Positions 63,259-64,000 of a stretch of DNA of 64,000 nucleotides are shown piece after piece. Within the stretch, counting starts at the first letter, position 1; every line of letters begins with the position of its first letter. Below the pieces are notes generated by a model that searched no databases, was not told the DNA's origin, and saw nothing but the letters and a program-made list of their open reading frames with translations. Source of the stretch: Escherichia coli (lineage in GTDB: Bacteria > Pseudomonadota > Gammaproteobacteria > Enterobacterales > Enterobacteriaceae); assembly GCF_030013595.1 (NCBI RefSeq), contig NZ_CP122768.1; one strand, 5' to 3'. Both the position numbers and the translations under genes were made by a program.

Positions 63259-64000
63259 TATATAAAAACATTAAGTTCAATTCATTGATATTTAATGATA
63301 AAAATTATTTTATTGTCTTTTTATTAGCCAAAATCAACTTTATTCAACCGTTTGATTTCATTGACGTTCGTTTTTATTTTGGGGAAAGGTTTTCTCTACC
63401 ATTTATATCCAAATTACAAGTCTACATTTTATTAACATCTCAATACATGTGAGGCCTTGCAGACCTTTGTGAGACCTTATGTGTCTCTGTTTTGTCCCAC
63501 CTTGTATTACGACTTGCATAGCCAATGAAGATAAATGTGACGACAAACGGCGCGGCAGTCTTCTTTTCCTTCATACTTTCCCCACCCAGCATGCATACCT
63601 TTATGCCATAACTGAAGTTTATGTCTGTTATGAGCGATGAGCGGAAGTTCACTACTTCATGACTAACATTGAAGTGTCCTAAGCAACGGGGAGCAGCTCA
63701 AGGAGTGTGTTAGTGCAATTACACTAACACAGCTACTAAAAATAAAAATACCAAAACTACAGTTATTCTATGCGCCTGGATTGGGTTCGATCATACTCAG
63801 CGTTTTTGCTATTTTCTTAATCTCATCATCATTATCCAAAAAAGAGGCGTCTTTTATTACCACAGTACGCTCTTCTTGTAATAGCTCACCTATTTTTTCT
63901 TCTATAAAATCTAAGGTTGGCATTATAATCTGGATGTCTCGAGAAAAAGTAGTTTTTGCATCTTCTATACTGTTGAATCCATTATGTATATGAGTGAATA
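63259..64000. other. AT-rich DNA beyond the icd attachment remnant: probable end of an icd-integrated element (e14-like prophage or island); content not identifiable from 0.74 kb
   Basis: Abrupt loss of icd homology at 63258; low GC; only short ORFs without recognisable families. Confidence 0.3.

Follow-up and report, generated by a model that had tools for sequence, protein, structure and literature searches.

The right-hand end of the DNA analysed here, a stretch of 64,000 nucleotides of Escherichia coli (contig NZ_CP122768.1) referred to below as the window, very probably contains, from position 63258 to 64000, the integrase-distal (attR) end of a phage 21-type prophage or prophage remnant inserted at the phage 21/e14 attB in icd, this end being a mosaic with cargo DNA of a prophage type normally found at thrW. 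That lambdoid phages integrate into icd and replace the 3′ end of the gene with a copy of their own has been textbook knowledge since the late 1980s. The same gene serves as the attachment site of phage 21, e14 and NC-SV (PMC12803456); the works cited on this site in that paper include Hill 1989, Brody and Hill 1988 and Wang 1997. The title of the last of these, Wang et al. 1997, indicates that phage 21 and e14 differ in integration specificity at a shared attB.

The window is oriented opposite to the K-12 numbering. Reading rightwards, its right end contained bluR (59897 to 60628), ycgX (60849 to 61253), iraM (61959 to 62282), an IS200-family copy of 706 bases (IS200C; 62337 to 63042, with tnpA on the minus strand) that separates iraM from the icd terminator, 165 bases of the icd tail (minus strand) and, finally, 742 bases of DNA with a lower G+C content. 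In K-12, the order read backwards is bluR, ycgX, iraM and icdC, followed by the right end of e14. This match in gene order indicated that the window enters the element from the iraM side, at its integrase-distal end. No tRNA genes were found between 62000 and 64000. The only real Rfam match, to STnc490 (62908 to 63031, 146 bits), belonged to the IS200C copy.

The closest complete genome was that of HCP5S3_I2, with 99.9% identity over 23 kb. The site is empty in this genome, which has the order iraM-icd-rluE, an intact icd gene and no element, and it was therefore utilized as an empty-site control. Window positions 59952 to 62336 were 100% identical to the corresponding flank of HCP5S3_I2, and positions 63043 to 63257 were 100% identical to the 3′ end of its intact icd gene, terminator included. 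The IS200C copy was missing from this otherwise identical flank, but strain 20AH011 carried it at the same spot. In a seven-way alignment, the window followed intact icd through 63257 and diverged completely from 63258 onwards. A preliminary description of this DNA had stated that icd homology ends abruptly at 63258, and alignment to the intact gene of HCP5S3_I2 placed this estimate within one base of the actual break. An intact icd gene without an adjoining element, the arrangement that the same description had set against its own proposal, was present in this closest relative and not in the window.

A tblastn search of the whole 64 kb with K-12 Icd as the query detected only residues 362 to 416 of the protein (63097 to 63261, minus strand), and the position of the break between chromosome and element confined attB to the terminal ~165 bases of icd. 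The identity to HCP5S3_I2 and the tblastn result defined an icdC-type remnant at 63094 to 63257 on the minus strand, comprising the last ~55 icd codons and the stop codon (63094 to 63096) and forming the B′ side of attR. A terminator-like site at 63048 to 63070 on the minus strand, downstream of this remnant and within the stretch identical to the empty-site genome, corresponded to the native icd terminator hairpin. The displaced chromosomal 3′ end of icd has, hence, been kept together with its native downstream DNA (63043 to 63257). In relatives, such a remnant carries the annotation of a truncated dehydrogenase pseudogene, and its K-12 counterpart bears the name icdC. The DNA after the break was AT rich, as had been described, with a G+C content of 34.9% for 63259 to 64000 versus 48.2% for the window and only 23.2% for the first 181 bases.

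Phage traffic has been suggested to drive variation of the 3′ end of icd. The remnant and its adjoining bases (63043 to 63260) were 92% identical to K-12 icdC (L009, positions 17412 to 17629) and 84% identical to the e14-derived icd 3′ end of K-12 (L009, 2216 to 2426), a divergence from the K-12 copies that is consistent with such phage-driven variation.

The DNA immediately beyond the break was homologous to phage 21 (OL657228.1, M61865.1), a phage with the same attB. Window positions ~63258 to 63645 aligned with positions 5001 to 5389 of the phage 21 locus (L005) with ~89% identity (88.5 to 89.4%) over 387 bases. The annotated order in the phage is int, three Int arm-type sites, a terminator, an "ICDH-like" pseudo 3′ end and then the matching DNA. 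Homology to the window starts immediately after this icd-like segment of the phage, without an intervening base and in the same register as in the window. As the break coincides to the base with the boundary of phage 21 homology, the homology following the break cannot be ascribed to chance. Judged from the alignments, this layout is exactly that which attR would be expected to show if recombination took place at the 5′ boundary of the icd homology. The first part of the matching DNA, from 63258 to 63439, was assigned as a phage 21-type attachment arm, on the integrase-distal side of attP, with homology to phage 21 starting from L005 position 5001, a G+C content of 23% and a distribution specific to icd-integrating prophages. 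A consensus for Int arm-type sites, YYTTCCCCAAAA, was taken from the attP annotation of the phage 21 record. This consensus had a single perfect match in the 64-kb window (0.06 expected), namely CTTTCCCCAAAA at 63377 to 63388 on the minus strand, a predicted Int arm-type binding site that was in register with the fourth phage 21 copy (L005, 5119 to 5130).

The arm (63259 to 63439) was detected in 1465 of 5426 complete E. coli genomes (27%). Forty of the listed matches were picked at even steps down the ranking, and a truncated icd gene adjoined the arm in all 40. The arm was not found in thrW-type prophages or in e14 among the loci compared. The arrangement itself is ordinary, was described decades ago and occurs in roughly one in four E. 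coli genomes. The icd prophage of strain 2012C-4502 (NZ_CP027440.1, about 94.9 to 141.6 kb) had an arm identical to the window over 63182 to 63600 and exhibited the layout of a complete element of ~46.7 kb, consisting of icd, int, xis, a full lambdoid genome with tail genes, cargo, the arm, icdC and iraM. The cargo of this prophage differs from that of the window, as it consists of DUF3800, DUF4236 and DUF2971 genes followed by lambda-type tail fibres and lacks the 488-codon gene described below. The proposal of the preliminary description that the DNA past icd is the far end of an icd-integrated prophage or island was borne out by the phage 21 arm homology, in the form of an attR end with the 3′ fragment of icd left as a pseudogene.

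Similarity to phage 21 and to other icd-linked relatives did not extend to the end of the window. Positions 63440 to 63648 formed a segment common to the right ends of phage 21-type (icd) and thrW-type prophages, as the icd-linked relatives matched the window up to 63645 to 63648 and the thrW-type prophages matched it from 63440. The thrW-type similarity started at exactly the equivalent of 63440 in 16 of the 16 such loci fetched. This position is flanked there by a distinct arm of ~66 bases, beyond which lies the tRNA-Thr 3′ end in reverse complement. These prophages, which have pinE and Mu-like tail genes, were located at thrW because they end with the tRNA-Thr 3′ end. The tRNA-Thr ends were situated at L001 14700 to 14811 and at the equivalent positions in L003, L006 to L008 and L010 to L019; in some genomes, a P4-like satellite or IS66 was present directly beyond the prophage end.

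The last 371 bases of the window matched 29 other E. coli genomes with 99 to 100% identity. In these matches, they form the right end of thrW-type prophages containing Mu-like baseplate genes, an invertible tail-fibre segment and pinE. The thrW prophages of this group (D2, AR_0369, ECONIH4 and others) were 98% identical to 63440 to 64000 and 100% identical from 63563; they share the 488-codon gene and a 50-codon open reading frame with the window but differ in having the other arm of ~66 bases with the tRNA-Thr 3′ end, and none of them is at icd. A mismatch map was constructed for these two groups of relatives. The window was identical to 2012C-4502 over 63182 to 63600 and identical to D2 and AR_0369 over 63563 to 64000, and the switch from the icd-type arm lineage to the thrW-type cargo lineage was, therefore, located within the interval from 63563 to 63600, which contains the recombinant joint. 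Phage 21 continues beyond the shared segment into a hypothetical gene and sitABCD, whereas the window changes cargo at about 63580 to 63648. Positions 63649 to 63767, a spacer downstream of the 488-codon gene, matched thrW-type prophage ends only and were assigned a thrW-type origin. A perfect 9-bp inverted repeat was present within this spacer at 63707 to 63730 (GTGTTAGTG, six bases and CACTAACAC), 38 bases downstream of the stop codon of the 488-codon gene; this repeat had no terminator score and was not followed by a T-run on the gene strand.

The exact joint of arm and cargo was absent from the 5426 complete E. coli genomes searched by megablast, and exact-pattern scans of GTDB representatives, IMG/VR and JGI metagenomes did not find the combination. 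Exact look-ups of two chimeric open reading frames spanning the joint returned no match. In similar look-ups, the 488-residue protein was found in thrW-type contexts only and the 50-residue product in 2012C-4502-type contexts only. The exact mosaic was previously unsampled and represents a routine instance of ordinary prophage mosaicism. The ~200-base shared segment probably serves as a homologous linker between attachment module and cargo. This locus is of modest value as a base-resolved case of reassortment of attachment and cargo modules via a short shared segment.

As the mosaic joint rests on one sequence, the DNA to the right of ~63580 might instead be unlinked to icd, owing either to an assembly join through the ~200-base segment or to a rearrangement of an icd and a thrW prophage via that segment. 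The joint falls within a 38-base stretch in which both parental types are identical, and the combination was present in no other sequence searched, as this explanation would have it. This explanation was, however, considered improbable on several grounds. Prophage mosaics at short shared segments are commonplace, and most assemblers rely on k-mers or reads longer than the 38 identical bases. The two prophage ends were inferred, from K-12 gene order at thrW and icd, to be in direct orientation, such that a real exchange between them would delete essential DNA. Furthermore, the window contained no other sign of misassembly, and its flank was 100% collinear with the nearest relative.

Another explanation, that the element is e14 or a close relative of e14, as in K-12, was judged to be very unlikely. 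Both elements use the same attB in icd, an icdC-type remnant lies by iraM as it does in K-12, and the thrW-type relatives of the cargo end resemble e14 in carrying pinE, an invertible tail-fibre segment and Mu-like baseplate genes. The attachment arm of e14, a cryptic element, is nevertheless unrelated: the K-12 DNA between mcrA and icdC (L009, 17181 to 17413) had no similarity to the window beyond 63260, and the arm and predicted Int arm-type site of the window matched phage 21 instead. In addition, mcrA, the type IV restriction gene located at this end of e14, was not present at the end of the window. Identity with e14 was rejected on the arm comparison, the e14-specific arm not being adjacent to icdC in the window. 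Given the dissimilarity of the K-12 e14 arm, the attachment module is of the phage 21 type even though the site is that of e14. The preliminary description, in noting that e14 occupies this position in K-12, was correct as to the site, but the window does not have an e14-type arm. Cutting of icd by a deletion or by the neighbouring IS200C copy, leaving AT-rich DNA of an unrelated island, is hardly credible, and truncation by the insertion sequence was rejected because this copy, although only 52 bases from the stop codon of the icd remnant, lies on the opposite, downstream side of it, the break being the phage 21 homology boundary to the base and the same junction being present in over a thousand genomes.

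The origin of this mosaic prophage end is best explained as follows. The element very probably entered icd through site-specific recombination by a tyrosine integrase at the attB of phage 21 and e14, in the terminal ~165 bases of the gene. Phages of this kind bring their own copy of the icd 3′ end, and icd would be completed by this phage copy at the far junction, beyond the window; the original chromosomal 3′ end would have been left as an untranslated remnant (63094 to 63257) beside the phage arm. The arm (63258 to 63439), with its one predicted Int arm-type site, is of the phage 21 type, and the DNA from the joint within 63563 to 63600 onwards derives from the cargo end of a Mu-like-tail/pinE prophage of the type normally at thrW. 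The mosaic would most simply have been generated by homologous recombination within the ~200-base segment common to both phage types. The integrase, the excisionase, the hybrid icd gene and most of the cargo presumably lie beyond 64000, although the element could be a short remnant.

The preliminary description had reported only short, unidentifiable open reading frames after the break and had assigned both the identity of the element and its cargo to DNA outside the window. The DNA is AT rich, and most of the cargo presumably lies outside, but the window includes the phage 21-type arm as well as two recognizable frames, one being the 3′ part of a 488-codon gene and the other a conserved open reading frame of 50 codons. 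Positions 63768 to 64000 (233 bases, minus strand) contained the last 76 codons and the stop codon of the former gene, which runs off the window, and the translation was identical to the C terminus of the AR_0369 protein. Identity to the DNA of this stretch was nowhere below 99% among the 29 matching genomes and reached 100% in 9 of those listed; full-length copies in relatives were located at L001 15139 to 16605 and L003 18139 to 19605.

Searches with the 488-residue protein detected nothing above threshold in Pfam, PADLOC 2.0, PHROGs, NCBIfam or PDB sequence and profile searches. The protein belongs to a family of ~485 residues distributed across Proteobacteria and Bacteroidota, almost all members of which are unnamed. 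In an 80-member alignment of this family, E40, D74 and Q88-C-K90 were invariant, and Pfam Mrr_cat was reached by 16 family members but not by the closest relative. The N terminus of the family is, on this pattern of residues and profile matches, predicted to be an Mrr-like PD-(D/E)xK nuclease domain, which in this copy would be outside the window. The family was compared with PD-(D/E)xK domains of the Mrr/MspJI/FokI type and with the nuclease effectors LmuA and Cap4, and no convincing match was found for its helical C-terminal two thirds (~350 residues). Foldseek matches to LmuA in the PDB were weak (E about 1e-3, TM 0.25 to 0.30), and identity with LmuA was rejected. No LmuB or CD-NTase partner gene was conserved beside family members in the contexts compared.

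In the thrW prophages, the 488-codon gene is located between pinE and the attachment arm, where mcrA is found in e14. Its neighbours there are an uncharacterized 139-codon gene and PD-T4-3, a GIY-YIG gene situated 1.2 kb past the 488-codon gene in the thrW-type relatives (PADLOC E value of 3e-140), a position that in the present genome would fall past 64000. PD-T4-3 corresponds to CMoRE, which belongs to the type IV enzymes and cleaves DNA containing 5hmC (PMC12923530). The slot next to pinE is, hence, occupied by PD-T4-3/CMoRE in the thrW type (L001, 17845 to 18618) versus mcrA in e14 (L009, 16347 to 17180); mcrA is also of type IV and is methyl directed, and the modification-dependent nucleases present in this slot are unrelated to each other. 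Elsewhere, a P2-like prophage carried a member of the 488-residue family as a solitary gene separating gpD from the tail S/R genes, and a member in Acinetobacter adjoins PAAR and umuDC genes; in several types of prophage, the family thus occurs singly within variable regions. From the motif of the relatives and from these contexts, we infer that the 488-residue protein may be an anti-phage, exclusion or defence nuclease. A more specific proposal, offered tentatively, is that the gene encodes an undescribed single-gene anti-phage nuclease with an Mrr-like PD-(D/E)xK head and a helical sensor or regulatory body of ~350 residues, carried as a cassette that passes between thrW Mu-like-tail, P2-like and phage 21-type icd prophages, with the ~200-base segment containing the 50-codon open reading frame possibly acting as the recombination linker by which such cassettes are moved. 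As it occupies the place taken by mcrA in e14 and by PD-T4-3/CMoRE in relatives, this unnamed family of putative nucleases could reasonably be included in a screen for defence genes, and it is the one lead from this locus worth passing on.

The 50-codon open reading frame, at 63440 to 63592 on the minus strand, may encode a small membrane protein, in agreement with the phage 21 annotation as a putative membrane protein, and has a hydrophobic core of FVVTFIFIGYA. No family match was obtained for it in family-model searches. The frame was uninterrupted in each of the six sequences examined (the window, 2012C-4502, phage 21, 20AH011, D2 and AR_0369), and the sole indel among these six was in frame. 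Its stop codon coincided with the boundary at which the thrW-type similarity begins, and the frame is conserved in phage 21 and at the outermost integrase-distal position of icd-type as well as thrW-type prophages.
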